Translations under genes and position numbers: made by a program
NCBI GenBank assembly: GCA_043811795.1
Contig: JBDRMV010000116.1
Location: 1 to 33,919 of the forward strand
DNA from: a bacterium
Lineage (GTDB): Bacteria; CG03
Direction of reading: 5' to 3'
Length of the DNA stretch: 33,919 nucleotides
The notes under the pieces: generated by a model
The model's input: only the letters and a program-made list of their open reading frames with translations
Told to the model about the DNA's origin: nothing
Databases searched by the model: none
Shown: positions 1,539 through 15,800 of the stretch, piece after piece
Numbering within the stretch: position 1 is the stretch's first letter
Layout: the number at the start of each line of letters is the position of its first letter

Positions 1539-3449
1539 ATGAAAAAGAGAGCCAGAATCTTTGCAGAATTGCTTGTCGTAGCAGGTCTGTTTATAAGAGG
1601 CCCTGCGTTCGGCTCTAATTCTGCTTCCGTGGCCCTGAAGATTATGGTTGATCCTTTTGAACCGTCAAGGATAACCGACTTCCAGGCGGGTTACGGCTCG
1701 GCTCTCGGCGAGGTTGATCTTAAATGGACCGCGCCCGGTGACGACGGGATAAAAGGCCAGCTCAGAGCGGGAGCGTATTTAATAAAATACGACAAAAAGA
1801 GTCCTGCTGATTTTGCGGAAGATACAACTTCCTGGTGGAAAAATGCGGGAAGATATTTAGTTGACAGTTCATGGATCCCGAATCCGCCGGGCACTGCCGA
1901 CACGAAAACGATAAACGCTTTTACGCATCAGGAAATTTACGACAGGGAAACATTTTATTTTGCCATTCAGTCAGTGGACAAAGTCGGCAGCGAATCTGTG
2001 ATTTCAGACATTGTTTCTGCCGTGCCGAGGTGGGATATAACGCCGCCTACGACGATTTCGGACCTCGTTGTTTCGTATAACGATAACAGAACAGGCGTTG
2101 TTCTTGAATGGACTGCGCCCAAAGATGTTTTCTTTCAGACGTATGAATCTAAAGTCGACGGCTATATTATAAGAAGGTCGACGGTTTCTCTCGGGGAACT
2201 TTCAGGCGTTGCGACAGCGTGGTGGAGCGCGGCGTCCGAAATTTCACCGCCAGAGCCCGCCGAACCCGGGACGGGAGAATCAATTGAATTGAATGACCTC
2301 ACGGGAGGCGTAACATATTATTTTGCGATAAAGAGTTTTGACGAGCAGGGCAATGTTTCGGAGATTGACACTCTGTTTACGGGGCGGGAAGGTATTTACA
2401 TAATGAAAGACGCGGCGACGCCGAACCGGGTTTCGGGAATTTGGGGTCAAATTGAAGGAAATAAATTCATAATTCACTGGTCCACCGTCGAAAAGAATAA
2501 CGACGGAACAACGGAGTGCGAAGACCTCGCGGGATATTATATAAGGTGTTCGCTGAATCCGTTTGACGCAGGAGTTATAACCGCAACGGTCGGCGCTCTC
2601 ACCACTTCGTACGAAACGTATTATTCGACAAATACTCCGGTTTATTATTATTCAATTACCGCTTTTGACGGCGCGTATCCGTGGATAAACGAGAGTGAAC
2701 TCTCAATGAGGATTGATTCTTCGGACGAGGTATCCCTCTGGCTCTGCTCGCAGAGAGCGGCGATAAGAATTCCGAAGACAGTTCAGGCAATAATGAGAAA
2801 AGAAAATAATTCTTACGGGGATAATATTGATATGGAAATTGAGCGGATTACAGGCGAGGAGAAGAGCAGGATTCTCTGCAGTTACAGGTTTGACGCGGTC
2901 AAGAACGTTTCAAAAGACACCGCCGGTAAATTTGTTTTCAGAAGGCCTTACGCCGAAATTCGGCTTTATTATTCGGGCGGGTCGGGTCCCGCCGCCCTGC
3001 AGGCGGAGGACAGTTATTCTATAATGTGGTATAATGGCAAAGAATGGCTCAAACTCGGCGGTGATGTTAATAAGAAGGAGGGTTTTGTATCCGTAAAGAC
3101 GGAGCGTATAGGGAAGTATCAGCTTCGCCGCTCAATCCGGGCGACGAAGTTCACTCTGGTCAATGGACCGATTCCGAAAATTATCACGCCGAATGGGGAC
3201 GGGCTTAATGATTTCTGCGAGTTCTTCTATGATAATCCGCAGAATTTTGCTCCTGCCGGAAAGATTTTTGACATAACGGGAGCTTTTGTTACGAATATGG
3301 CAAACGGTCCGTTGAGAAGCAATTCGTCGGGCTCTTTGAGGTGGAACGGATTTGACAGCTCCGGCAGGGTTGTCAGGTCGGGCATTTATATTTACCAGAT
3401 TGATGCGGGCGGGGAAGTTTATAACGGAACAGTGGTGGTGGCAAGATGA
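1539..3449 (+). CDS. Secreted fibronectin-III-like repeat protein with T9SS type-B-like (CHU_C/FlgD-Ig-like) C-terminal domain
   Basis: Signal peptide; repeated LxWTAP...Y.I...WW..A...P..PGT...YFAI.S.D..G..S.I FN3-like units; C-terminus PKIITPNGDGLND...KIFDITG...WNGFDSSGRVVRSGIYIYQI...GTVVVAR. Confidence 0.8.
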   Translation: MKKRARIFAELLVVAGLFIRGPAFGSNSASVALKIMVDPFEPSRITDFQAGYGSALGEVDLKWTAPGDDGIKGQLRAGAYLIKYDKKSPADFAEDTTSWWKNAGRYLVDSSWIPNPPGTADTKTINAFTHQEIYDRETFYFAIQSVDKVGSESVISDIVSAVPRWDITPPTTISDLVVSYNDNRTGVVLEWTAPKDVFFQTYESKVDGYIIRRSTVSLGELSGVATAWWSAASEISPPEPAEPGTGESIELNDLTGGVTYYFAIKSFDEQGNVSEIDTLFTGREGIYIMKDAATPNRVSGIWGQIEGNKFIIHWSTVEKNNDGTTECEDLAGYYIRCSLNPFDAGVITATVGALTTSYETYYSTNTPVYYYSITAFDGAYPWINESELSMRIDSSDEVSLWLCSQRAAIRIPKTVQAIMRKENNSYGDNIDMEIERITGEEKSRILCSYRFDAVKNVSKDTAGKFVFRRPYAEIRLYYSGGSGPAALQAEDSYSIMWYNGKEWLKLGGDVNKKEGFVSVKTERIGKYQLRRSIRATKFTLVNGPIPKIITPNGDGLNDFCEFFYDNPQNFAPAGKIFDITGAFVTNMANGPLRSNSSGSLRWNGFDSSGRVVRSGIYIYQIDAGGEVYNGTVVVAR

Positions 3450-3640
3450 GGAGCGTGAAGCGTGAAGAGAAAAGAGTGATGAGTAATGAGGGAAGAGTGA
3501 AGAATATGGAAAATAAAAAATTGAAACGATTTATTTTTCACACTGTACACTTCACATTTAACACTTCGCGCTTTGCACTTCGCGCTTTACACTTTACTCT
3601 TTACACTTTGCTCTTTACACTTTGCTCTTTATACGTCACG
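3446..3640. repeat. Heptamer repeat pair: purine (GTGAAGA-like, 3446-3503) and complementary pyrimidine (CTTTACA/CTTTGCT, ~3537-3640)
   Basis: Read directly from the sequence; the pyrimidine arm encodes the signal peptide h-region. Confidence 0.8.
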
Positions 3641-5116
3641 GTTTTTGCCGCTTTTGAAGATATCGGCGTCGGCGCACGTCCGATTTCAATGGCGAACGCT
3701 TTCACGGCGGTGGCGGACGACGTTCATTCGGTGTATTACAATCCTGCGGGTCTTGCGGGTTTAACAAAGTATGAAGTTGCCTCTTCCTACGGGAAACTTT
3801 TCTGGGGTCTTACGGATAATTCGAACATCGGGGTCAGTTTTCTGGCCGGCGCCGCTCCGGTCAGCCGGCTCAGGGGTGTTGTGGGTATTGGGATTAACCA
3901 GTTGAAACTTGACAATCTCTACCGGGAAGACCAGTACATACTGTCCTACGGACGGGAAATTAACTCTGGGAGGTTCGGGATGCTCGGCCTCGGTTCTTCT
4001 CTGAAAATTTTATCGCACAAGTTCGGCCGCGATGATTATACCGATAATGCAATAGATGAAACAGGGGTCTCTCATGACGGCGTCCCCGACCCTGTTTTTG
4101 CAAGCGGCCGCGGCAAAATGTCTTTTGCGGTTGATTTCGGCGTGATAAAAAATTATAATAATATGAAAATGGGTATTTCACTGCTTAACATAAATCAGCC
4201 GTCGGTCGGGCTGAGCGATAAAGGCGACAGGGTGCCGTTCGGGTTTAAGTTCGGTTTTTCGCATAAAGGAGAGAAGAGCATTCTCGCTTTTGAATTTTCA
4301 AGGAAGGACAGGGACAATATCCTGCGCAGCGGTCTGGAACTTTCTGTTTTTGAAAAGTTCGATTTCAGATGCGGTCTTGAAATCGGCAGCAGGGATTTTG
4401 CGAATATAAATTTTGGGTTCGGTTACCGGATTGAAAATAAATTCTTTATCGACTATTCTTTTATCCTTCCCACTATGGGGATAAAGGAGACATACGGGAC
4501 GCACAGGGTTTCTTTGAATGCGAAATTCGGGAAGAAGGTTCTTACGGAAAAAGCCCCGGTCAAAGAGCGCATAGAGGACGCCGAGAAACATTATATGAAG
4601 GGCGTTGATTTTTATCTTGAAGAGGACCTGAAAAATGCGGAGAAAGAGTTTAAAAAGGTTCTCGAAATAGACCCCGGCAACCAGCCGGCAATTGATATGC
4701 TGAAGGAATGCGGCGCGGGCGACGAGGCGAAGAAACCCGAGACGATGAAACCCGAAGAGAAAAGCGTGGAAATACCCGAAGAAGAAAAAGAAGCTCTCAA
4801 AAAGAAATATTTCGGAAGCGCTACGAAGTACTACTTAAAGGAAAATTATACAAAGGCGGTAGAAATGTGGGAGAAGGTTCTTCAACTGGACCCGTCTCAT
4901 GAGATTTCGCGGCAGAAAATTGAAAAAGCCGAAAAGATGAAAGCGCTCAAGGATAAAGCGGGCAAAGGGTCGCAGGTTGAATACCATTATATGAGGGGCG
5001 TTGATTTTTATCTTGACGAAGACATCGGAAACGCGAAGAAAGAGTTCAAAGAAGGTATTAAGATCGACCCGAACCACCGGCCGACGATTGATATGCTGAA
5101 AGAATGTGAGAAGTGA
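3506..5116 (+). CDS. PorP/SprF-PorV/PorQ-like outer membrane beta-barrel fused to C-terminal TPRs
   Basis: Mature N-terminus FEDIGVGARPISMANAFTAVADDVHSVYYNPAGL is the FadL/PorV-superfamily plug motif. Amphipathic strands end THRVSLNAKF and are followed by three TPR-like units. Start moved from 3446 to ATG 3506 because 3446-3503 is repeat DNA. Confidence 0.8.
   Translation: MENKKLKRFIFHTVHFTFNTSRFALRALHFTLYTLLFTLCSLYVTVFAAFEDIGVGARPISMANAFTAVADDVHSVYYNPAGLAGLTKYEVASSYGKLFWGLTDNSNIGVSFLAGAAPVSRLRGVVGIGINQLKLDNLYREDQYILSYGREINSGRFGMLGLGSSLKILSHKFGRDDYTDNAIDETGVSHDGVPDPVFASGRGKMSFAVDFGVIKNYNNMKMGISLLNINQPSVGLSDKGDRVPFGFKFGFSHKGEKSILAFEFSRKDRDNILRSGLELSVFEKFDFRCGLEIGSRDFANINFGFGYRIENKFFIDYSFILPTMGIKETYGTHRVSLNAKFGKKVLTEKAPVKERIEDAEKHYMKGVDFYLEEDLKNAEKEFKKVLEIDPGNQPAIDMLKECGAGDEAKKPETMKPEEKSVEIPEEEKEALKKKYFGSATKYYLKENYTKAVEMWEKVLQLDPSHEISRQKIEKAEKMKALKDKAGKGSQVEYHYMRGVDFYLDEDIGNAKKEFKEGIKIDPNHRPTIDMLKECEK
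4589..5106 (+). repeat. Intragenic ~122-bp duplicated TPR module (4589-4710 and 4985-5106)
   Basis: cattatatga(a/g)gggcgttgatttttatcttga...attgatatgctgaa(g/a)gaatg at offset 396, encoding HYMxGVDFYLxED...IDMLKEC twice. Confidence 0.9.
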
Positions 5117-5134
5117 AGAGGGAAGAGTGAAAAG

Positions 5135-5890
5135 ATGTTGAAGAAGATGGAAAACAAGAGATTTGTCGTTTGTTGTTTCCGTTCTATTCTTTACACTTTA
5201 CTCTTTACACTTTACTCTTTACACTTTACGATTTCTGCGGCTGAGGAAAAAAAGGTCTTTAAAAGAAACGTAAAGCTTGTTCTTCACAAAAAAGTTGAGT
5301 CGGTGAAAGTCCAGGGTTTTTTAGGGAGAGGGGAACGTCTTATGACGATTCCGATGCTGAAAAAAGGGAACGAATTTTACATAAATCTGAATCTCGGCGC
5401 CGGGTTTTATCCGTACAGATATCTGGTTGACGGGGAAAGATATATCACCGACCCGTACAACAAAGAAGACATCGTCCAGGGAGAGATTAAATATTCCCTT
5501 CTAAAGGTCTGGCCGGATAATCCCGAACTCTTTTTGAGCATGGCTTCCGATTTTATCGCAAAGAAGAAAGTTGAATGGGCAATTGATGTATATATCGAAG
5601 GGATTAAAACATTCCCGAAGGAAGTCAAACTCTATTCCGCCCTCGGGGAGTTTTATGAGGGGAAAAAATGGTTTGATTTTGCAGCGGACTGCTATCATTC
5701 GTATCTTGAGAATGACCCGGAAGATGCCGGAATGAGGTACAGGATCGCGAGTTGCTACGAGAAATTTTATCTTGATACTGACAAGAAAAAATTCGGGGAA
5801 TACGCGGTGTTTCACTGGGAAAAACTGTTCGGCACGAAGTACGAGGAAGAAGCAAAAAAACACATAAAAGAGTTGAAGAGTAAAGAGTGA
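5135..5890 (+). CDS. Exported CBM48/AMPK-beta glycogen-binding-like domain plus TPR protein
   Basis: Signal peptide ending TISA; VKVQGF...IPM.K....F...L.L..G.YPYRYLVDG...TDP.N matches the early-set/CBM48 pattern; TPR-like helices follow. Start is 5135 or 5147. Confidence 0.7.
   Translation: MLKKMENKRFVVCCFRSILYTLLFTLYSLHFTISAAEEKKVFKRNVKLVLHKKVESVKVQGFLGRGERLMTIPMLKKGNEFYINLNLGAGFYPYRYLVDGERYITDPYNKEDIVQGEIKYSLLKVWPDNPELFLSMASDFIAKKKVEWAIDVYIEGIKTFPKEVKLYSALGEFYEGKKWFDFAADCYHSYLENDPEDAGMRYRIASCYEKFYLDTDKKKFGEYAVFHWEKLFGTKYEEEAKKHIKELKSKE
5188..5229 (+). repeat. Perfect (TCTTTAC-ACTTTAC)x3 heptamer array
   Basis: Six heptamers read directly; complementary gtgaagagggaagagtgaa lies at 5113-5131. 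Confidence 0.9.
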
Positions 5891-5899
5891 AGATAATTT

Positions 5900-5921
5900 G
5901 TAGGCACGGTTTCAACCGTGC
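5900..5921 (+). repeat. GTAG-family REP
   Basis: GTAG followed by the perfect hairpin GCACGGTT-TC-AACCGTGC. Confidence 0.65.
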
Positions 5922-5936
5922 TGATTGGAGGAAATT

Positions 5937-6410
5937 ATGAAGTTCAAGAGAAGGAAGAAGCTTATTGAAAAGCGTTTGCAGATTAAAATTGCCGTTTATG
6001 TCGCGGTGGCGCTGCTCGTTGTCCTTGTTTTCTCGCTGATTTTTACGCATGCGACAATCAAATCGATTTTCCCGAGAATTCTTTCAACGACGATGGGTGC
6101 GAGAATTGCGGCAATTCAGACGAAACTTCTGATATTCGGAGTTGTCTATCTGATTTTTGCGGCGTTTATTTCCATCCTTATCTCGCACAAAATTGCAGGA
6201 CCCATTTTCAAGTTCAAAAAAGAAATAGGGAATATGATAAAAACCGGCGATATTTCACAGAGAATTTTTCTGCGTCAGGGCGACGAGTTGAAAGATTTAG
6301 CTGATTTGATGAACCAGCTGCTTGATATGATTGAAGCGTCTGCGGGCAAAGAAACGGCTGAGCGGCTCCGGCGGGTGGCGGAAGTGCAGGCGGAAAAGAG
6401 TGAAGAATGA
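5937..6410 (+). CDS. Small 2-TM HAMP-domain membrane protein with no output domain
   Basis: Two hydrophobic segments, then SHKIAGPI...GDISQRIFLRQGDELKDLADLMNQLL (HAMP); ggagg RBS before ATG 5937. Confidence 0.75.
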   Translation: MKFKRRKKLIEKRLQIKIAVYVAVALLVVLVFSLIFTHATIKSIFPRILSTTMGARIAAIQTKLLIFGVVYLIFAAFISILISHKIAGPIFKFKKEIGNMIKTGDISQRIFLRQGDELKDLADLMNQLLDMIEASAGKETAERLRRVAEVQAEKSEE

Positions 6411-6460
6411 AGTTGAGTCCGCCTGAAGCGGACGAAATCCGCCGAAGGCGGGAGAAAAGA

Positions 6461-6682
6461 ATGAAGAAATATATGAGAATCGGTGAAGTCGCGAAATTCT
6501 GCGGCGTTGCGAAAACGACAATCAGGCATTATACGGACATAGGAATCCTGCCTTTTGAAGGCAAGACGCCCTCGGGCCACCGCCTGTACGCTGCCAGAAA
6601 AACGCTGGTGAGAGTACAGATTATTAAAAGCGCCTCGCGTCCCCGCGCGTCGCTGAAAGACGTGAAAGAAAAATTGAGATAA
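6461..6682 (+). CDS. MerR-type HTH DNA-binding protein (HTH domain only)
   Basis: MRIGEVAKFCGVAKTTIRHYTDIGILP...SGHRLY. The upstream 6407-6460 is palindromic repeat DNA, so ATG 6461 is preferred. Confidence 0.8.
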   Translation: MKKYMRIGEVAKFCGVAKTTIRHYTDIGILPFEGKTPSGHRLYAARKTLVRVQIIKSASRPRASLKDVKEKLR

Positions 6683-6719
6683 AAAGTAAGGAAGAGACTA
6701 AGATATTGAGGGGGGTGTT

Positions 6720-7100
6720 GTGAGAAATAAAATTTTAATGGGCGGTGTTTTTTTACTTATTTTTGCTACAGGTATAAGAGCTGAACTTCCTCCTTGGCTT
6801 TCAGCAGTGCCAAAAATTGTTACGCCCGACGGCAACAACCACAACGATATATTTTATATTTTTTACAACCTCCCTGCTGATCCGGGAAGAGTGTCGGGAA
6901 AGGTTTTCAATTTGATAGGTATGAAAATGGCGGATTTCAGAAATGTCGGAGGAGAAGCCGTGGCAAAATATCCTGAGCCTGATGGAACTTGGGAAGGATA
7001 CCTTTACTGGGATGTCGGTTCCGCTCCGTCGGGTATTTATATTTATCAGATTGAATCGGGGAATGAAACTTATACAGGGACGGTTGTCGTCGCCAGATAA
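6720..7100 (+). CDS. Signal peptide plus stand-alone T9SS type-B-like CTD
   Basis: Signal ending GIRA; VPKIVTPDGNNHND...SGIYIYQIESGNETYTGTVVVAR is homologous to the C-terminus of 1539..3449. Confidence 0.8.
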   Translation: MRNKILMGGVFLLIFATGIRAELPPWLSAVPKIVTPDGNNHNDIFYIFYNLPADPGRVSGKVFNLIGMKMADFRNVGGEAVAKYPEPDGTWEGYLYWDVGSAPSGIYIYQIESGNETYTGTVVVAR

Positions 7101-7104
7101 GAAC

Positions 7105-9312
7105 GTGAAGAGGGAAGAGGGAGGAGGGAAGAACAAGAAATTAAATCGGGAAAAGTTTGAAATTTGTTGTTTCCGCTTTATTCTTTATTCTTTACTCTTT
7201 GCTCTTTACTCTTTACTCTTTACGGTTTCCGCTGACTTTGAAGACCTCGGATGGGGTGTCGCTTCCGCCGGCCTTTCCAACTCCGTGATGTTTTCAAAAA
7301 AGATTCCTGCCCTGATTTCCATAAATCCCGCCGCATCTTCCTTTACTAAAATGCCGGCGGTGTGTGTTGAATACGAGAATCTTTATCCTAATCTTTCCGA
7401 CGGCAGTAAACTTACGAGAAACATTATCACTTATTCGCAGCAGCTTGAGTCCGCGGGTTTCGGCGCCGGCCTTGAAAATTTCACTCTTGACGGCCTTTAC
7501 ACGGAAAGGATTATTCTTGTGAATTATTCACAAAGGTTAAAAAACGAATTATTCTGGGGCTTGAATTTCCGCCACCTCCAGAAAAAATACGGCAGAGATG
7601 ATTATACGGATAATGCGATTGGTCCAGGTGGTGTGGTCTATCAGCCCGCCAAACCGGACCCGCTCTTCAACAACAACGGTTTCAAGAAGAACGGCTACAC
7701 GTTTGACGTCGGTGTTTCGAAACTCGTCAGGGATTTCTGGCACCTCTCGGGCGCCGTTTCCTATCTGACAAGTCCTGATGTTTCTCTCGGCGGCGGGGAC
7801 AAAAGAAAACCTACTTTTACAATGGGCGCTTCTTTTGAGGACCGCCTTGTAACGGTCGGGAGCATATTTAGTTTTCACGACGGAGATTACAACTCCGGCA
7901 TTGGCTTTGAAAGGTCTTTGCCGGACAGGCCTTTTAAGGTAAGGGGAGGTCTTTCAATCGGGAACAGCCAGGTCCGGCTTTTGTCCGTCGGTTTCGGATA
8001 TGTGCATTCCGGCAGGTTTTTGGTGGATTATGCCTGGACGTATCCCCTTGTGGGTTTGAAAGAAACGGGCGGCCGGCACAGGGTTTCGCTTTCCATGTAT
8101 TTAAGGAAGGAAGAAGCGGAGAAGGAGGATAAAGTCGCCGCGCTTTCGGATTTGGAGCAGTATCTTGAGAAAGCCAGAGAGGCGTTTGCAAAAGAGGACT
8201 GGCTGACCGCGCTGTCCTACGGGAAAAAAGTTCTGGAACTTGAGCCCAAAAATGAGGAGGCGAACGAAATACTCTCAAAGTCCGTCGCTAATCTTCGCGA
8301 ACTTTCCAAACCGTTTATTACGGAGGGGTTTTATTTTATAGAAAAAGGCAAATTTAATATTGCCGAGGAAAAGTTCGACACTGCTCTTGAAATCAATCCC
8401 GAAGGCGACGACATAAAACAAATCTGCCTGAAAATTAAGAAAATAACAAGGATAATTCCGCAGGCGGCGGAGAAGGATAAAATTTCCCGTCTTTTAAGAA
8501 CGTCAGTGAATGCTTATATCAATGATGACGTTATGCTTGCTTTGAATTCCGCATTGTATGTTTCTCAGATTGATTTCACCGGCATTGGTTCGAAGTTCCG
8601 GGACCTCATGAAGAGCGAGTATCCTTCCCAGTACCAGCAGATTGCGATTGTCGCAGGGATGAATCTTGTCGAGCAGAAACTTTATGCTTCTTTGAAAAAC
8701 ATATATAATGCAAGATATGACCTGGCGATAATGGACTGCGATGATGTCCTTAAACTTGAGCCCGAAAATGTTCTGGCTATGACCCGGCTGGGTTCCGCTT
8801 ATTACGCTCTCGGTAACAAGGCAAAGGCGGTCAGCGTCTGGCAAAAGGCGCTTGAATACGAGCCGGATAACAAAGACATTCTGGATTTTCTCGGGATGTC
8901 GGGCGGGGCGATAAAGGATGTCTATGAAAAGAAAAAGGAATCGGAGTCCGCGGCGGAAAAGACGGTGAAGGACTCCTACCTGCGCGGCATCGCGGCTATG
9001 AAGAGAGGAGAAATTGAAAAAGCGAAAACGCTTTTTGAAAAAGCGGTTTCGATAAATGTCACTGACGGAGCATCGCTGGATTATCAGAAGAAGTCCTCTG
9101 CCAAACTCAGCGAGTGCGAGAAACAATTGGAAAAGAAGAGCGGGCAGGACATGAATATGATGAAAGTTTACTTCGGCAGCGGAATGTCGTATTATAAAAA
9201 CGGCGAATACGGAAAAGCGGTGGACGAGTTTGAGAAAGTTCTGAAAATCAAACCGGACCATCCGCAGTCAAAGAAAATGATTGACTTATGCCGCCAAAAA
9301 ATGAAAAAATAG
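7105..9312 (+). CDS. Second PorP/SprF-like beta-barrel fused to a long TPR array
   Basis: Signal ending TVSA; DFEDLGWG...INPAA; shares GRDDYTDNAI with the first barrel; last strand RHRVSLSMYL followed by ~400 aa of TPR-like helices. GTG 7105 chosen to avoid overlap with the CTD gene. Confidence 0.75.
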   Translation: MKREEGGGKNKKLNREKFEICCFRFILYSLLFALYSLLFTVSADFEDLGWGVASAGLSNSVMFSKKIPALISINPAASSFTKMPAVCVEYENLYPNLSDGSKLTRNIITYSQQLESAGFGAGLENFTLDGLYTERIILVNYSQRLKNELFWGLNFRHLQKKYGRDDYTDNAIGPGGVVYQPAKPDPLFNNNGFKKNGYTFDVGVSKLVRDFWHLSGAVSYLTSPDVSLGGGDKRKPTFTMGASFEDRLVTVGSIFSFHDGDYNSGIGFERSLPDRPFKVRGGLSIGNSQVRLLSVGFGYVHSGRFLVDYAWTYPLVGLKETGGRHRVSLSMYLRKEEAEKEDKVAALSDLEQYLEKAREAFAKEDWLTALSYGKKVLELEPKNEEANEILSKSVANLRELSKPFITEGFYFIEKGKFNIAEEKFDTALEINPEGDDIKQICLKIKKITRIIPQAAEKDKISRLLRTSVNAYINDDVMLALNSALYVSQIDFTGIGSKFRDLMKSEYPSQYQQIAIVAGMNLVEQKLYASLKNIYNARYDLAIMDCDDVLKLEPENVLAMTRLGSAYYALGNKAKAVSVWQKALEYEPDNKDILDFLGMSGGAIKDVYEKKKESESAAEKTVKDSYLRGIAAMKRGEIEKAKTLFEKAVSINVTDGASLDYQKKSSAKLSECEKQLEKKSGQDMNMMKVYFGSGMSYYKNGEYGKAVDEFEKVLKIKPDHPQSKKMIDLCRQKMKK
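7175..7223 (+). repeat. Seven TCTTTAC-like heptamers encoding the signal peptide h-region
   Basis: gctttat-tctttat-tctttac-tctttgc-tctttac-tctttac-tctttac; purine counterpart at ~7105-7132. Confidence 0.9.
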
Positions 9313-9341
9313 ACCGGAAGTGAATATGAAAATGAAATAAT

Positions 9342-9571
9342 ATGAAACGTTCATGCCGGCAAGCCGTCACAAATTATGAAATGTAAATATATATGTTGTA
9401 GCATGCGAGCTTGCTCGCAAGATGAAAGCAAGCTTTCATGCTACAATGCGGAAATGAAAGCAAGCTTTCATGCTACAATGCGGAAATGAAAGCAAGCTTT
9501 CATGCTACATTGATGAGCAGTAATAGGGGTATTTACAGATGAAACGTTCATGCCGGCAAGCCGTCACAAAT
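9342..9571 (+). repeat. 33-bp exact direct repeats (9342-9374, 9539-9571) bracketing a REP cluster
   Basis: atgaaacgttcatgccggcaagccgtcacaaat occurs twice. Confidence 0.9.
9398..9509. repeat. GTAG-family REP doublet (REPIN-like) with tandem amplification of one arm
   Basis: GTAGCATGCGAGCTTGCTCGC (9398-9418), then three inverted copies in 32-bp units atgaaagcaagctttcatgctacaatgcggaa (9422, 9454, partial 9486). Confidence 0.8.
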
Positions 9572-9646: not shown

Positions 9647-11032
9647 ATGAAAAAAAGCAGGAACAAAATCCACTTTTTGCGTTTTTATCTTTTTACCTTT
9701 TTGTTTTTTTGCGGTTTTACTTTTTCTTTCGCGTCGGTTCCGGATACCTCGGTCATTGAAAAGCAGGTTTCTTCTGTTCTTCAGAATGTTTTCAACATCA
9801 GGCAGTTTTCCGTTTCCGTAAGAATTGATGATTATGTAGAGATTATCAACATGGGCAAGGATAAGATGAATATTCTGCCGGGGGTCCCGATTGAGGAAAA
9901 GCTGATGGGCGCTCCGTCAAAACAGCTGGTCCAAAAATACAGGTTTTTGATAACGGTCGTTCTTCCGAGGAACGTTACGCTTGAAATGGAGCAGAGGGTC
10001 GAGCGTCTTTTGAAGGTCTGTTTGAGTTTAAAAGAAACCGATTCCCTGAAGATATTGAGAGAAGAATTTGTCAGCGCTCCGCCGGCCCCCCCCGCGGCAG
10101 AGGCGGAAGCGGTTTCTCCTCTTGCCGGTTTCGGGTTCAATGTTTTGAAATATTTTTCAAATCCCTCTAATATTCTGCTGGTAGCGGTTGTTTTAATAAT
10201 GTTTATTTTTCTTTTCGGGCCTCTGCGGTCTTTTATGAGATATGCGGCGACTTATTTTGCGAATGTTTCGCAAAAGGCGTCTCCTGAAACTCTGGAACTC
10301 GGCACCGGCGCTGTAAGGGGAAATCCCCTTGGGCCCGTCAATCTTCTCACTTCGCCCGAAGCGAAAGAGGCGAGCGGCGAAACAGCGGACGTCCCTTTTT
10401 CTTTTGTAAATGAAAAAAATATCTCAAACCTTGCTTTTCTCCTGCGTGACGAGGACTCGGAAAAAATCGCAAACATCGTAGGTTTCTTCAAGGAGCCGCT
10501 TATAGAAAATTTCGTCAGTTGTTTTCCCGAAGAAAAACAGTCGGATATAATGAGTTTCCTGGTGTATAAGAAGGAATTATCTTCGGATGGCATCAGGGGG
10601 CTGGAGCAGGAGATAAAGGAAAGGATTGATTACGTTTCGGGAGGGAAAGAGCGGCTGCTGAGGATGCTTGAGAATTCTTCCCGGCAGGTCCAGGAGCAGT
10701 TCCTGCAGCACATTGCCGACGAGGATCCCGTTCTCGCTACGGAACTGAGGAATTCAATCTTCCATTTTGAAGATCTTGCAAGGCAGGAAACATCCGTCGT
10801 TCAGACAGTCCTGAGGTTTGTTAATACGCGCGCGCTTGCGCAGGCGCTGCAGTTTTCCGACCCGGAAGTAAAGGATAGAATTTTCTCTATACTTTCGGAG
10901 GGCGCGCGGGATATTGTAACGGAGGAGCTTGAACTGTTGCCGGAGAATCAGACAGCTTCCCTGCGTGAGCAGAAGAATATCGTTGTCGTGGTAAGACGGC
11001 TGAAGGATGCCGGAACGATAGAACTCGGTTAA
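9647..11032 (+). CDS. FliF(RBM3)-like periplasmic domain + TM + FliG middle/C-terminal domain fusion
   Basis: Signal ending FSFA; IEKQVSSVLQNVF...FSVSVRID and RFLITVVL...EQRVERLLK...DSLKILREEF resemble FliF-C; TM NILLVAVVLIMFIFLF; PFSFV...LAFLLRDE (FliG-M); SGGKERL...IFHFEDL...VLRFV...LAQAL...RIFSILS...EQKNIVVVVRRLKDAGTIEL (FliG-C). The FliG part is high confidence, the FliF part moderate. Confidence 0.75.
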   Translation: MKKSRNKIHFLRFYLFTFLFFCGFTFSFASVPDTSVIEKQVSSVLQNVFNIRQFSVSVRIDDYVEIINMGKDKMNILPGVPIEEKLMGAPSKQLVQKYRFLITVVLPRNVTLEMEQRVERLLKVCLSLKETDSLKILREEFVSAPPAPPAAEAEAVSPLAGFGFNVLKYFSNPSNILLVAVVLIMFIFLFGPLRSFMRYAATYFANVSQKASPETLELGTGAVRGNPLGPVNLLTSPEAKEASGETADVPFSFVNEKNISNLAFLLRDEDSEKIANIVGFFKEPLIENFVSCFPEEKQSDIMSFLVYKKELSSDGIRGLEQEIKERIDYVSGGKERLLRMLENSSRQVQEQFLQHIADEDPVLATELRNSIFHFEDLARQETSVVQTVLRFVNTRALAQALQFSDPEVKDRIFSILSEGARDIVTEELELLPENQTASLREQKNIVVVVRRLKDAGTIELG

Positions 11033-11241: not shown

Positions 11242-11997
11242 ATGGATTTGATGACAATTTTGGGTCTTCTGGTGGGCGTGGCCGCGGTCTGGTTCGTTCT
11301 CGCTTCGGGCGGTATTATGGGCATGCTTTTTAATATTAACGCCGCGATTCTCGTCTTCGGAGGCGTTTTAGGAGCGACACTGATAACCTACCCCGGGCGC
11401 CTGATAAAAAGAATCCCGAAAGGCGTTTGGCTTATGTTTTTTCCGCTGCGAATTGATTTGCCGAGCGACATTATAAAGGTCTTTGAGACCTGTTCAAAAA
11501 AAATTCACAAAGAAGGGATAAGCACGGGTCTGCTTGAAATTATTCCGTCAAGGAACAAATTTTTTGTAAAGGCGATAAATTTCCTTGTGGACGGGTTTGA
11601 AGATGATTTTATAAGAGAAACAATGGAAAACGAAATTGATAATTTCAAAAAAAGACACAATCAGGCGGCGGATGTTTTTAAGTCGATGGGAGCTTACGCG
11701 CCGATTTTCGGCCTTCTCGGGACGCTTATCGGCGTTGTTCAGGTCTTGCAGAACCTGACCGACCCGGCGAGCATGGGCTCTTCAATGGCTATCGCCATCA
11801 CGACGACGTTTTACGGGATTTTTTCGACGAACTTTATTTTCCTGCCGATTGCAGGGAAACTTTCCGTTCAGACAAACAGGGAAACATTAATAAAAGAATT
11901 AGTCATAGAAGGAACCCTCGGCCTGAAGAAAGGCGAAATACCTTCTATTCTGAGACATCGGCTTCAGTCGTTCCTTGCCGATTATGAAAAAAAATAA
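11242..11997 (+). CDS. motA: Stator A subunit (MotA/PomA/MotP family)
   Basis: MDLMTILGL..., VFGGVLGATL, VDG, APIFGLLGTLIG, GSSMAIAITTTFYG, LPIAGKL, IEG; ~250 aa; gaggtg RBS. Confidence 0.92.
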   Translation: MDLMTILGLLVGVAAVWFVLASGGIMGMLFNINAAILVFGGVLGATLITYPGRLIKRIPKGVWLMFFPLRIDLPSDIIKVFETCSKKIHKEGISTGLLEIIPSRNKFFVKAINFLVDGFEDDFIRETMENEIDNFKKRHNQAADVFKSMGAYAPIFGLLGTLIGVVQVLQNLTDPASMGSSMAIAITTTFYGIFSTNFIFLPIAGKLSVQTNRETLIKELVIEGTLGLKKGEIPSILRHRLQSFLADYEKK

Positions 11998-12655
11998 ACC
12001 CGGCCCTGCGGGTCGCATCAAACAGCCGGAAAAACCGAAAGAAGGATCTCCTGTTTGGCTCACGATTTACTCCGACCTTATGACTAATCTGATGCTTTTT
12101 TTTCTTATGCTTTACGGGATTACCAGGATGAGCGTCGAAACAAAATCAACAATTCTTGAATCCCTCGCAATGCAGTTCAAGAATCCCGAGAAGCAGAAAG
12201 CCATTATGAAATCGTACGAAAAGACTGCCGCCGACATTGAAAAGTTTATGGTTAACGTCCGTGAAAATCCTGTCGTGGAAGAGGTGCTTGCGGAGCAGTC
12301 GGGGTACAAAATTCTTCTAAAAGCGCCCGTCCTTTTTCATTCGGCGCGTGCTCAAATCAGGGATGAATCAAAAATTCAGCTTTTAACGCTTGCGCAGTTT
12401 CTCGCCGCAATTCCGAATACGGTCGAGATTATCGGGCACACGGATGACATCCCCGTAACGGGAACGAAGTGGAAAAACAATTGGGAACTTTCTCTGGCAA
12501 GAGCCGAAAGCGTGAGGAATTTTCTCGTGTCTCAGGGGATAAAAAAGGAAAAATTCTGTATTGCGGGGTATGGTTCCAAGAGGCCTATTTGCCCGAACGA
12601 TAGCCAGGAAAACCGCCGCCGCAACAGGAGAATAGAAATAATTGTTTTGAAATAA
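11984..12655 (+). CDS. motB: Stator B subunit (MotB/PomB) with OmpA-like peptidoglycan-binding domain
   Basis: WLTIYSDLMTNLMLFF with the essential Asp (gac 12074-12076); GHTDD, NWELSLARA, NRRIEI; overlaps the motA stop. Confidence 0.92.
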   Translation: MKKNKPGPAGRIKQPEKPKEGSPVWLTIYSDLMTNLMLFFLMLYGITRMSVETKSTILESLAMQFKNPEKQKAIMKSYEKTAADIEKFMVNVRENPVVEEVLAEQSGYKILLKAPVLFHSARAQIRDESKIQLLTLAQFLAAIPNTVEIIGHTDDIPVTGTKWKNNWELSLARAESVRNFLVSQGIKKEKFCIAGYGSKRPICPNDSQENRRRNRRIEIIVLK

Positions 12656-12755: not shown

Positions 12756-12898
12756 AGGCGTATGCACATGAATCAAGTTGGTATATTAAACAGGGAAAAT
12801 CGGGTCACCTCTATTTTTTCTTACGATACAAAAGTAAAAAATAGAAGTGACCCATTTTCGCATTATAAGGCGATTACTGGAATCAAGTGCATACGCCT
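12756..12898. mobile_element. MITE-like element with terminal inverted repeats and target-site duplication
   Basis: TIR aggcgtatgcac/gtgcatacgcct; flanking direct repeat ataaaggaat at 12746-12755 and 12899-12908; internal IR gggtcacctctatttttt/aaaaaatagaagtgaccc. Confidence 0.8.
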
Positions 12899-12918
12899 AT
12901 AAAGGAATTTCCAACAGG

Positions 12919-14457
12919 GTGAACATAAAGAGGAGAATCATTTTAACGGCGGTTCTGCCGGTCGCCGGCGTTTTGATTGTTTCGCTTATAGCGGGAGATT
13001 TTTTCACGGGCTCTTTTGAAAAAAAATGGATAAACGCTCAACTTGAAAAAAGATACGAGAAAGTTGAAGTCATTTTCGACAGACATTTTTCAATTCTGCG
13101 GTCGCCGGAAAAGGAAATATTCACCGCTCTTGTAATGAAGATGCAGTCATGGGGGGAACTGAACAAATTTTTTATCCGTTTTTCGCCCCTTTATCCCCAA
13201 CTGGAGAAGATTTCAGTCTCCCGCGGAGATGACAATATCGCAGGGATTTCAAAACTTTCCGTAAATTCATTCGGGAATTTTCCGGTGAATGAAAAAACAA
13301 ATCTCAGCGATATCTTCCAGGTGGGCGGCATGTCTTATACGGCGTTTAAAATTGAAGGCGAAGACGGCTACGAAATTTCCGGAATTATAGGGCTTTCTTC
13401 TCTTTTTGAAAAAGCGGCAGGGTTTTCTTTCAGTCCCGGCGGTTCGGTAAAAATTTATTCCAGGGCTCCGAATTCCGAAGCGTCCGTCGGCGCTGCAAGG
13501 TCTTTCCCGCTGCTCAAAGGTCTGTGGTCCGTTGAATTCACGGATGATTTTACGGCCGTTTATAAGATGAGATCTAATTTCAGAAATATTTTTATATTGT
13601 TTGCCGCCGCGGTATTTTTTCTGATGTATATTATTTCGGTATCTTCCGCGCGCAGGATATCTTTCCGGCTGGCGGCCCTTCGCGGGGACGCTAATATATC
13701 CGAAAGCGAAGATGAAATATCCGTTATTTCAAAACAATTTAAGGAACTTCGCAAGACGCAGAACGAACTCCGCCGGCAGATAAGTTTGCAGGACGCCGTC
13801 GGCATCCTCGGCAAGAATGTTTCCATGATAGGCCATGAATTAAGAAATCCGCTGGCGGCGATAAAGAACGCGCAGTATTTTATTTCGTCGCAGTTGCCTG
13901 ATGAAATAAAAAAAGGTCTGGTGGGGAAACATCTGCAGATAATAAAAAACGAGATAAAATTAATTTCGTCAATGGTTGAGGATTTGCTGACCCTTTCAAG
14001 AGTTAAGCCGCCCGTGTACGCTGAATGCGACGTAAACGCGCTCATCAACGAGTCGGTCGATTTATTCGCGGCGGACACCCAGCTTATTGACTTTATTGTA
14101 AAACCCGGGAGAATTTCAAAAGTGCCGGCGGACGCTTCGGAGATAAAGCAGGTTTTCCTGAACATCATAAGAAATTCCTGCGAGGCGATTACGCCGCCCG
14201 GGGAAATAAAAATAGAAATTGGAGAACAGGAAAATTTTGTAAAAATCAAATTTACCGATACCGGCTGCGGGATACCGCCGGACAAGCAGGAAGAAATATG
14301 GAAACCCTTTTTCTCGACCAAGAGTTCCGGTATGGGCTTCGGGCTTTCAACCGTAAAAAGAATCGTGGAGGAAAGGCACAAGGGCAAGGCGGAGATTAAA
14401 AGCCTGCCCGGGAAGGGTACCGAAATAACGATTTATCTGCCGCAAAAGCAGGAATAA
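12919..14457 (+). CDS. Membrane sensor histidine kinase (HisKA-HATPase)
   Basis: Two TMs around a periplasmic domain; H-box GHELRNPL, N-box QVFLNIIRNS, DTGCGI, PFFSTK, GMGFGL. Start uncertain; GTG 12919 lies outside the MITE. Confidence 0.9.
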   Translation: MNIKRRIILTAVLPVAGVLIVSLIAGDFFTGSFEKKWINAQLEKRYEKVEVIFDRHFSILRSPEKEIFTALVMKMQSWGELNKFFIRFSPLYPQLEKISVSRGDDNIAGISKLSVNSFGNFPVNEKTNLSDIFQVGGMSYTAFKIEGEDGYEISGIIGLSSLFEKAAGFSFSPGGSVKIYSRAPNSEASVGAARSFPLLKGLWSVEFTDDFTAVYKMRSNFRNIFILFAAAVFFLMYIISVSSARRISFRLAALRGDANISESEDEISVISKQFKELRKTQNELRRQISLQDAVGILGKNVSMIGHELRNPLAAIKNAQYFISSQLPDEIKKGLVGKHLQIIKNEIKLISSMVEDLLTLSRVKPPVYAECDVNALINESVDLFAADTQLIDFIVKPGRISKVPADASEIKQVFLNIIRNSCEAITPPGEIKIEIGEQENFVKIKFTDTGCGIPPDKQEEIWKPFFSTKSSGMGFGLSTVKRIVEERHKGKAEIKSLPGKGTEITIYLPQKQE

Positions 14458-14638
14458 GTATGCACGTGCCAACCAACAATCTTTTCACCTTCTGGGGGGT
14501 GACAAGCGACGAGTGTCCGCCGGCGGCGGATGAGAGGAGCACAATCAGGGGGGGAAATCCCCCCTATTGAATCAAGCATCCGGGAATTACTTGTGTCCGT
14601 AAGGGTACAGGCGAGTGAGTAAGTATAACGGAGGGGCA

Positions 14639-15013
14639 ATGGATAAAAAAAAGATATTAATTGTTGACGACGATTTCAGTGTGCGGGAAACGCTCGGGGA
14701 TATTCTGCGTTCCTGCTCTTATGAGGTTTTTGAGGCGGCCACCGGCGCCGAGGCGGCTAAACAGGTTGAGCTGGAGGAATTCGATTGCGTAATTGTTGAT
14801 TTGCGCCTGCCGGATGCGACCGGACATGAAGTCATAGAGAAAATCTCCGGTAGAGTAGAAAAAAACAAAATTATTATCATCACGGGATACGCTTCGTCCG
14901 AAGTGCTTTCAAAAGCGCTGCTTGATGCGGAGTATTTTCTGCTTTTGAAACCCGTTACGCCGGAGCAATTATTGGCGGTTGTCCGGAAAATTGCAACCGG
15001 CGGAAAAAAATAA
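14639..15013 (+). CDS. Single-domain response regulator (CheY-like receiver)
   Basis: ILIVDDD, VDLRLPD, IITGY, LLKP; ggagg RBS; no output domain. Confidence 0.9.
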   Translation: MDKKKILIVDDDFSVRETLGDILRSCSYEVFEAATGAEAAKQVELEEFDCVIVDLRLPDATGHEVIEKISGRVEKNKIIIITGYASSEVLSKALLDAEYFLLLKPVTPEQLLAVVRKIATGGKK

Positions 15014-15014
15014 A

Positions 15015-15800
15015 ATGGCTGAAGAAGCAAATTGGAATGTTCCATACGGCAATTTAATGACGATTCTTATGATATTTTTTCTGCTCCTTTACGCTTTTAC
15101 GTTTCTCACGGGCAACGTCAATTACGAAAGAGTCGTCGCTTCGCTTTCCGCCGGTTTCGGAAAAACCACGCCCTTTAAGGAGGTTGCTCTCGCGGAATAC
15201 CTTGAAGATTACTTTTCAAAGAAACAGGGTTTTCTCAGAAAACTTCAGATTGATGCCGACAGAATAAAACTTATTTTCAACATACCGATTTTTTTCAAAA
15301 AAGGGAGCACTGAAATTAAGCCCGCGGCGGTCAAAATTTTGGATGATATCTGTCTGGTGATGCTGGACATACCTAATAACATTATCATAGAGGGTTATTC
15401 GACCGAGGAAGCGGGGCAGAATGAGATGCTTATTTCAGCAGGCAGGGCTTTGGGAATCGGGAAGTTTTTCATTGACAAAGGTATCGACCCGTACAGAATA
15501 GTAATCAAAGGGTGGGGGAGCAGCCGTCCGTTTGCCACCGAATCCGACAGAAAAAACAACATCCTCAACAACAGGGTGGAAATAAGCATTCAGCGCGCCG
15601 TCTCTATCGCAATGCCCCCGACAAGCGAGAAATTACAGAGGATGAAGGAACTCCATTTTTACGGCAATTATTACTACGGGCAGGGGGATATTAAAAAGGC
15701 GGAGGAATATTTCGAGAAAATTCTTGAAATCGACCCCGCTCACTGGAAAGCGAAACAAATGATAAGAAAAATCAAAAAACAAAAAAGGGGTCAGCTCTGA
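15015..15800 (+). CDS. Atypical MotB paralog (Asp->Asn, degenerate OmpA domain, C-terminal TPR)
   Basis: WNVPYGNLMTILMIFF; IEGYST in place of GHTD; ISAGRA; NNRVEI; C-terminal GNYYYGQGDIKKAEEYFEKILEIDPAHWKAK. Confidence 0.8.
   Translation: MAEEANWNVPYGNLMTILMIFFLLLYAFTFLTGNVNYERVVASLSAGFGKTTPFKEVALAEYLEDYFSKKQGFLRKLQIDADRIKLIFNIPIFFKKGSTEIKPAAVKILDDICLVMLDIPNNIIIEGYSTEEAGQNEMLISAGRALGIGKFFIDKGIDPYRIVIKGWGSSRPFATESDRKNNILNNRVEISIQRAVSIAMPPTSEKLQRMKELHFYGNYYYGQGDIKKAEEYFEKILEIDPAHWKAKQMIRKIKKQKRGQL

Follow-up and report, generated by a model that had tools for sequence, protein, structure and literature searches.

Two type-IX-like tail/barrel gene pairs at the front of a FliF-FliG/MotAB cluster in an uncultured relative of Elusimicrobia

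What are two gene pairs that resemble a Bacteroidota surface-protein system doing in a bacterium outside that phylum? The question is raised by a contig of a metagenome-assembled genome (MAG) that GTDB places in the bacterial lineage CG03 (GenBank assembly GCA_043811795.1, contig JBDRMV010000116.1), from which positions 1 to 33,919 of the forward strand, 33,919 nucleotides in all, were analysed as the window of this study. In reviews, type IX secretion and the type-B tail/PorP-like carriers are described as confined to Bacteroidota or the Fibrobacteres–Chlorobi–Bacteroidetes (FCB) group (PMC7463736, PMC10202324, PMC11205867). An earlier note on this DNA had described an arrangement like that of sprB and sprF, in which each of two secreted proteins with a C-terminal sorting domain (CTD1 and CTD2) is encoded beside a barrel gene, and this arrangement is borne out in silico by CHU_C-like tails, a PorP_SprF match and the adjacency of the genes. 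We read the genes as two carrier/anchor pairs of the type IX kind, in which the tail caps a dedicated barrel and which most likely work with a flagellum-free motor, and we put the probability of this reading at about 0.65. The motor enters the reading because the cluster with FliF-FliG, MotA and MotB is conserved across two phyla. Family and fold, gene order and predicted docking are computed; the topology, the export route and the coupling to the motor are parts that we infer.

The two tail/barrel pairs and their predicted docking

Every gene between positions 1 and 16000 of the window lies on the + strand. CTD1 (1539..3449) is a secreted protein of 636 amino acids (aa) with a signal peptide, fn3-like repeats (fn3, 23.6 bits over the full length) and a CHU_C/type-B-like sorting domain at aa 545-636; the last 100 aa, scanned alone, match Pfam CHU_C (PF13585) with 29.6 bits, over the cut-off of 27. 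CTD2 (6720..7100), of 126 aa, is made of a signal peptide and a CHU_C-like tail (24.5 bits) and nothing more, so that the earlier note is corrected with respect to a passenger; its orthologues span 133-171 codons. The two tails have 37 of 102 aligned residues in common (E 3e-14). A tail motif and a C-terminal ending had been claimed to be shared by both proteins, and the translated open reading frames (ORFs) agree: CTD1 (ORF 1539-3449) contains PKIITPNGDGLND and terminates in SGIYIYQIDAGGEVYNGTVVVAR, and CTD2 (ORF 6720-7100) contains PKIVTPDGNNHND and terminates in SGIYIYQIESGNETYTGTVVVAR. In an alignment of 23 family tails from the phylum, CHU_C matches 22 at E<=0.01, FlgD_ig matches 11 and Por_Secre_tail four, and the matches of the tail profile to solved structures include FlgD, the PorU tail (6za2, E 0.0016) and PorZ.

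As had been noted, each tail gene is immediately followed by a barrel gene, which overlaps or abuts it. Barrel 1 (3446..5116) starts at an ATG at 3446 that overlaps the CTD1 stop codon (ATGA), with an alternative start at ATG 3506; barrel 2 (7105..9312) starts at ATG 7063 or GTG 7105, around the CTD2 stop at 7098-7100. The first comprises a PorP/PorV-family 14-strand outer-membrane barrel (about 3650-4540) and a C-terminal tail of tetratricopeptide repeats (TPR), and the second, a member of the same clade, comprises a barrel at about 7237-8100 and a TPR tail of ~400 aa that ends in MIDLCRQKMKK. The two proteins are 28% identical (E 4e-46), and barrel 2 is grouped with the barrel 1 clade by BLAST and by tree. 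Barrel 1 matches Pfam PorP_SprF (PF11751) with 45.3 bits, over the cut-off of 22.3, and the same family is matched by 12 of the 29 clade members. The AlphaFold2 model of barrel 1, built with 29 relatives, has 14 strands, a predicted local distance difference test (pLDDT) of 92.5 and a predicted template-modelling score (pTM) of 0.88; a short N-terminal segment precedes strand 1 and is placed inside the barrel, as in PorV and FadL. By template-modelling (TM) score the model is closest to PorV (8gl6_F and 6h3i_F, 0.74 for each), and FadL follows at about 0.70. Clustering of the barrels with FadL, an outcome that the earlier note had set against its own claim, is not favoured: searched against PDB sequences, the clade profile finds PorV best (E 1.1e-7) and TodX at E 0.04.

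The complex of the barrel 1 domain and the CTD1 tail was predicted with custom alignments, in three runs and with three controls. The interaction prediction score from aligned errors (ipSAE) is 0.94 in all three runs and 0.03 for the best of the three controls; the runs share at least 99% of contacts, and the partner pLDDT is at least 88. The ipSAE mark is reached by 116 of 157 solved complexes and by 2 of 215 mismatched pairs, counts that are only rough with custom alignments. The barrel contributes residues 50-60, 85-93, 123-150, 186-195, 222, 246-250 and 274-281 to the interface, which takes in every long loop of one barrel face, and the tail contributes its TPNGD, IFD, YIYQI and GTVVVAR motifs. 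Judging by the short turns on the opposite side of the model and by periplasmic N and C ends, this docking face would be the outer face of the barrel.

The two barrels share the decapeptide GRDDYTDNAI in loop L3, at 4025..4054 and 7591..7620. The earlier note had singled it out as exact despite divergence elsewhere, and had proposed a conserved loop for docking of the sorting domain or for contact between barrels; both sites do translate to this peptide, in barrels that otherwise have the low identity given above, and the proposed role in docking is supported in silico. In the model of barrel 1, the decapeptide (domain residues 126-135) stands directly after strand 5 and opens the longest loop (L3, domain residues 126-154), and the interface predicted with the tail takes in seven of its ten residues (126, 128-131 and 134-135). 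An exact 10-residue run is far beyond chance for barrels at 28% identity. It is found here because the loop motif is deeply conserved: in an alignment of 31 barrels from two phyla, K.L...[YF]G[SR]D[DE]YT.[NT]AI..G...DPVF occurs in both barrel lineages, with variants such as GSDDYTENAI in one Elusimicrobiota barrel 2 and GSDDYTNNAI in the same-genus barrel 2. The two 30-nt stretches differ at five positions, all of them synonymous, a pattern that speaks for selection at the peptide level rather than for a recent gene conversion. Gene conversion was in fact rejected as the source of the shared decapeptide, on these five differences together with the age of the motif in both lineages. The exact match in the window thus represents two near-ancestral versions of an old constrained loop.

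The far ends of the barrel proteins are more varied. Barrel 2 ends in MIDLCR(Q/K/E)KM.K (9270-9312 in the window), with a cysteine ~8 residues from the end, in all seven orthologues of this GTDB family, and the barrel 2 tails of Elusimicrobiota end in ...W.KIY.AN...L.....GQEL.IP, which is LysM-like by eye. In the barrel 2 tail, anchoring to peptidoglycan may have given way to a possible disulfide anchor, for which the Cys-X-Cys tail of SprF (PMC12635249) is a comparison. A C-terminal cysteine as a general SprF-like trait was considered and rejected, the residue being missing in the barrel 1 orthologues of genus g3 and in the Elusimicrobiota copies. One clade barrel (locus L244, G023:C89) ends in ...RRVEMTIIK, by eye an OmpA-type peptidoglycan-binding end, and would, if this end is real, join a PorP-like barrel and a PorE-like anchor in one protein. 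The domains of PorE are TPR and OmpA-like.

Pairing, motor cluster and host across two phyla

The host MAG measures 1.74 Mb in 161 contigs and encodes about 30 PorV-family barrels; PorV_fam (NF033709) matches 33 places, 13 frames lie over its cut-off (barrel 1 is not among them), and CHU_C matches 14 places. We examined 31 barrel places, nine of which stand at contig edges. A tail-bearing gene, with tails judged by eye, directly precedes 17 of the 22 assessable barrels and not the other five. The tails come in two flavours, one of which, type-B-like with TPNGD...GTVVVA(R/K), is found in five tails, the two of the window and those on contigs C125, C69 and C52. The barrels behind these five tails form one clade, with support of 80 in the Shimodaira–Hasegawa-like approximate likelihood ratio test (SH-aLRT), or 98 with the inclusion of C36, for which there is no upstream sequence; on the barrel tree the type-B-like label requires one change, a value as low in none of 500 shuffles. 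Automatic labels for the other flavour missed some tails, and only the type-B-like tree result is used. The pairing extends to the 26 species genomes of the GTDB phylum of the host: PorV_fam has 6-35 matches in each of the 26, relatives of barrel 1 occur in 25, and at 26 of 30 loci of these relatives the upstream frame ends in ...GT(V/I)V(V/I)A(R/K). A search for related loci with the single protein sequence of barrel 1 yielded one true relative, in a MAG of the same genus. Of 61 genomes sampled from the phylum of a named Elusimicrobia MAG, PorV_fam matches 60 at E<=1e-10 and 44 over its cut-off, and the type-B-like tail profile matches 49.

Both pairs are the conserved front half of a FliF-FliG/MotAB cluster in two phyla. 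Downstream of barrel 2, the FliF-FliG fusion (9647..11032) encodes a transmembrane helix, a periplasmic alpha-beta-beta-alpha-beta domain, a further transmembrane helix and the cytoplasmic middle and C domains of FliG; the gene probably starts at ATG 9647, not 9539. FliG_C matches with 83.2 bits against a cut-off of 23.3, and the model (pLDDT 70.7) is matched by Foldseek to FliG (E 4.7e-11 to 1lkv; TM-score 0.92 on 1qc7) and to ring-building motif 3 (RBM3) of FliF (E about 3e-3). The MotA and MotB stator genes follow (11242..12655; MotA 11242-11997, MotB 11975-12655).

A phylum-wide survey with custom hidden Markov models (HMMs) annotated 44 FliG-like genes. A PorV/PorP-family barrel gene stands directly upstream of 25 of them, with gaps of -52 to +215 nt, and MotA is found downstream on the same strand for 35, within 300 nt for 21. 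The order large tail protein, barrel, tail-only protein, barrel, FliF-FliG, MotA, MotB is present in four genomes (G016, G010, G011 and G009), is shared from the tail-only protein onward by G018, and is retained as tail-only protein, barrel and fusion in G015; a stop/start overlap occurs in the clusters of G015 and G010. Among ten loci sampled from the Elusimicrobia phylum, which were selected for twin tail hits, nine have two tail/barrel pairs. The downstream sequence is long enough at six loci, and at each of these the fusion, MotA and two MotB genes come next. A homologue of the histidine kinase of the window (E 1e-17 to 1e-28) is encoded in the Elusimicrobiota loci after barrel 1 and before the tail-only gene.

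As the earlier note had proposed from the sequence, the context lies outside Bacteroidota. The host belongs to a GTDB phylum that comprises only 26 species genomes in total, and is for this reason not a member of Bacteroidota. The rpoB gene for a tree was taken from three named Elusimicrobiota MAGs, a pattern search alone having given relatives of ~50% identity from many phyla, and in the resulting tree of 21 rows the host is sister to the three NCBI-labelled Elusimicrobiota MAGs with SH-aLRT 100, on a long branch; two MAG rows of this tree (Chitinophagales and Thermodesulfovibrionales) fall among Firmicutes and are unreliable, and the tree is without a sound Bacteroidota row. The host is thus an uncultured relative of Elusimicrobia. 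As a taxonomic marker, trpD gave a mixed signal (Omnitrophota, Nitrospirota, Elusimicrobia) and was left unused.

Other type-IX-like parts are found elsewhere in the genome. The search for an SprA-like translocon, suggested earlier, returned one gene with a distant, sub-threshold match, a frame of 1708 aa that TIGR04189 matches in four collinear pieces (68, 61, 48 and 27 bits). It is single-copy in 25 of the 26 phylum genomes, and the genome that lacks it is 63% complete. A PorU-like Peptidase_C25 protein (815 aa, 194.6 bits, G000:C118:28905-31352) has a sorting-type tail of its own, and contig C118 stops 210 nt past its gene. The FlhA export gate (PF00771) has no match in the host genome, with a control search that matched 5 of 14 genomes.

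The host genome has three FliG_C genes. At G000:C123:13420-17174, a PorV-like barrel-TPR gene precedes that of a FliG-like protein of 708 aa, and MotAB lie at a distance of about 4 kb; at G000:C78:1356-5851 a FliG-like protein, MotA, two MotB proteins and a ~300-aa protein with a weak barrel match are encoded. Clusters of the C123 and C78 types both recur across the phylum.

Neighbouring genes and repeats

Three genes separate the two pairs. The first (5135..5890), seen in this genus only, encodes a protein of 251 aa that has a signal peptide and TPRs and gives a weak AMPK1_CBM-like match; it is followed by genes for a 161-aa membrane protein with a HAMP-like region and a transmembrane segment (5925..6410) and for a 91-aa MerR-family helix-turn-helix protein (6407..6682), which has matches in L263, L267 and L270 and is kept just upstream of the tail-only gene within the same GTDB family. 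Beyond the stator genes lie the histidine kinase (12847-14457), a response regulator (14615-15013) and a second MotB-like OmpA protein with TPR (14979-15800). No Rfam family was matched in the window, and hence no cyclic di-GMP riboswitch was found there.

Barrel 1, the 251-aa gene and barrel 2 open with similar modules (3455-3631, 5100-5229 and 7107-7223), each of which comprises an upstream array of purine heptamers (GTGAAGA-like) and an array of 6-13 pyrimidine heptamers (CTTTACA-like) that encodes the signal peptide. Paired with each other, the arrays fold into an extended hairpin that surrounds the start codon (z -4.95, -4.62 and -3.41; none of 200 shuffles folds as well). Under a strict pattern, four such arrays occur genome-wide, three of them in the window. 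A same-genus MAG has other numbers of units, and there, by eye, barrel 1 and the 251-aa gene seem to have traded modules. Because seven is not a multiple of three, slippage of the heptamers could switch genes on and off, here barrel 1, the 251-aa gene and barrel 2. The opa genes of Neisseria use CTCTT repeats for on/off switching.

Further repeats stand next to these genes. A direct repeat of 273 nt with 89% identity, at 1-273 and 1118-1390 just upstream of CTD1, corresponds to two tandem paralogues of a ~194-aa secreted protein that has no family match. Purine-rich 8-nt repeats (GAGAAATT or AAGAGATT) at 274-333, 1376-1427 and 6668-6711 stand directly upstream of several genes, CTD1 and CTD2 included. 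Between barrel 2 and FliF-FliG, a unit of 32 nt that holds a palindrome is perfectly repeated 2.8 times (9422-9509), and a stretch of ~30 nt is repeated at 9341-9373 and 9539-9571.

Carrier pairs, rival readings and known systems

On the reading that we prefer, the protein with a type-B-like tail would be exported by Sec and would cross the outer membrane probably via the single SprA-like protein of the genome. The tail domain would then cap the long-loop face of its dedicated PorP/PorV-family 14-strand barrel, holding the protein at the surface, with the conserved loop L3 (GRDDYTDNAI) as part of the docking surface. Pair 1 would carry an fn3-rich, adhesin-like passenger. Pair 2 would have no cargo, its tail-only protein and barrel 2, with the long periplasmic TPR tail, forming a fixed structural module. 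By analogy with SprF and from the order of the genes, the TPR tails of the barrels could reach the FliF-FliG ring.

Several points weigh against this reading. Each supporting step is a model or a gene-order argument, and the complex folding covered cognate pair 1 only; complexes of PorV with a tail have been solved already (8GL6 series), so the docking score may reflect likeness and not binding of this copy. The family scans suggested by the earlier note came out only in part. Barrel 1 passes the Pfam PorP_SprF cut-off, but falls under those of TIGR03519 (46.5 bits, cut-off 90.55) and PorV_fam (57.7 bits, cut-off 90), and barrel 2 alone is matched by no Pfam barrel family. For the tails, CHU_C is passed by that of CTD1 alone; full-length CTD1 (23.3 bits) and CTD2 (24.5 bits) are under the cut-off of 27, and the NCBIfam type-B model TIGR04131 has no match at E<=0.01 to the tails of the window. 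The pieces of the SprA-like frame are all under the cut-off of 200, and the frame has no Pfam match and no match among PDB sequences. GldM and GldL have no match in the genome, GldK has a weak generic match only (55 bits against 350), and GldN has no match in two genomes, where the control genomes gave no match either; gene absences are counted here in a genome that is 92.6% complete. By these searches, a canonical Bacteroidota type IX secretion system is apparently absent.

With the engine apparently missing, the pairs might be self-contained two-partner exporters, each barrel bringing its own tail protein to the surface without an SprA-like pore or a type IX translocon. The one barrel per cargo seen in 17 of 22 assessable cases, the failure to find GldL and GldM in the genome and the distant, sub-threshold nature of the SprA-like match all fit such an arrangement. 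However, a 14-strand model with an internal N-terminal segment resembles PorV and FadL, whose role is that of carriers rather than of pores for proteins; 25 of 26 phylum genomes retain the SprA-like gene as a single copy, and the host genome encodes a PorU-like C25 peptidase with its own tail, all of which makes these exporters distinctly unlikely. The TM-score to FadL (about 0.70, close to the 0.74 to PorV) could also be taken to point to FadL-type channels for hydrophobic compounds, with the tail proteins as unrelated neighbours, and Toluene_X (PF03349, the FadL family) does match 9 of 29 barrels at E<=0.01. Yet barrel 1 itself scores 13.4 bits with Toluene_X against a cut-off of 29.7, the profile favours PorV over TodX, the adjacency to tail genes is conserved, and the predicted docking stands at 0.94 against 0.03 for the best control; we consider such channels highly improbable.

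A rival of another kind leaves the carrier pairs as they are and questions the motor: they may be ordinary cargo carriers whose position next to the FliF-FliG/MotAB genes has no bearing on their function. The proposed link between barrel tail and rotor is one of gene order, as far as the sequence goes, and this order varies, the kinase having moved, three extra genes being present in this genus and MotAB lying ~4 kb off in type II clusters. The order nonetheless persists over two phyla, barrel genes stand closely spaced and directly upstream of 25 of the 44 FliG-like genes in the phylum of the host, and stop and start overlap in G015 and G010; a neighbourhood without functional link is in our view rather unlikely.

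If the capped carrier pairs do work with the motor, a bolder picture can be drawn, which we hold only tentatively. The pairs would form the part of a rotary envelope machine without flagellum that lies in the outer membrane and at the surface; in this machine, a FliF-FliG ring turned by MotAB would reach, via the periplasmic TPR tails of the barrels, type-B tail proteins docked at the surface. Such a machine would be an Elusimicrobiota-wide counterpart of Bacteroidota gliding and type IX transport, with flagellar motor parts in place of GldLM/GldKN, and in it the fn3-rich CTD1 would be an adhesin that is moved or exported, with the tail-only protein as a fixed cap.

The closest parallels are found in Bacteroidota. 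In SprB-SprF of F. johnsoniae and like pairs, a CHU_C-type tail protein is encoded beside a dedicated PorP/SprF-family barrel (PMC12618676, PMC9143113, PMC12635249), and SprF is tied to the gliding track via its periplasmic tail (PMC12635249). Both systems have a tail with several conserved motifs and a carrier with a periplasmic C-tail. The window differs in that its host is outside Bacteroidota and GldKLMN were not found, that its proteins are under the cut-offs of the NCBIfam PorP and type-B tail models, that its cluster runs on into FliF-FliG/MotAB, and that its barrels are fused to a TPR tail of 200-400 aa, whereas SprF has a short Cys-X-Cys tail (PMC12635249). In the PorP-PorE-PG1035 trio of P. 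gingivalis, the barrel in the outer membrane has two partners that it binds, a small protein with a type-B tail and a protein of the periplasm (PMC9143113). CTD2 and barrel 2 with its fused TPR tail resemble this trio; in the window the periplasmic part is fused to the barrel, and the PorK/N ring was not found. The best structural match (TM-score 0.74) is PorV with a substrate tail in the SprA translocon (6H3I, 8GL6 series), and here too the tail is predicted to be seated on the barrel. The sequence identity between PorV and barrel 1 is only 14-15%, and PorV is one shuttle for all type-A tails, unlike the window with its own barrel per cargo. With the core of the flagellar motor (the FliF membrane/supramembrane (MS) ring, FliG and MotA5B2), the cluster shares FliG and FliF RBM3 matches with MotA and MotB next to them, but FliF and FliG are here joined in one protein and shortened, the genome gave no match to FlhA, and the partners are outer-membrane barrels and tail proteins, not rod and hook.

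A literature search on Elusimicrobia or Elusimicrobiota and type IX secretion, which did not extend to subscription journals, returned no description of this system in the text that it could reach, only passing mentions, and one on FliG, MotA and Elusimicrobia, with the same scope, returned unrelated papers only. The present analysis adds that the type-B-like/PorP-like subclass makes up the fixed front half of the cluster and that the tail-only protein is conserved; it also adds the loop motif and the interface predicted for docking. The interface names residues to probe, namely barrel loop L3 and the TPNGD, YIYQI and GTVVVAR motifs of the tail. For the biology of the group, the carrier logic, with one barrel per cargo and about 30 barrels, runs throughout a 1.7-Mb genome of another phylum without the GldKLMN engine. 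If the parts of the cluster cooperate, they link two of the known proton-driven envelope motors, and the pairs would be a testable candidate for the display or movement of surface proteins in the mostly non-flagellated Elusimicrobiota.

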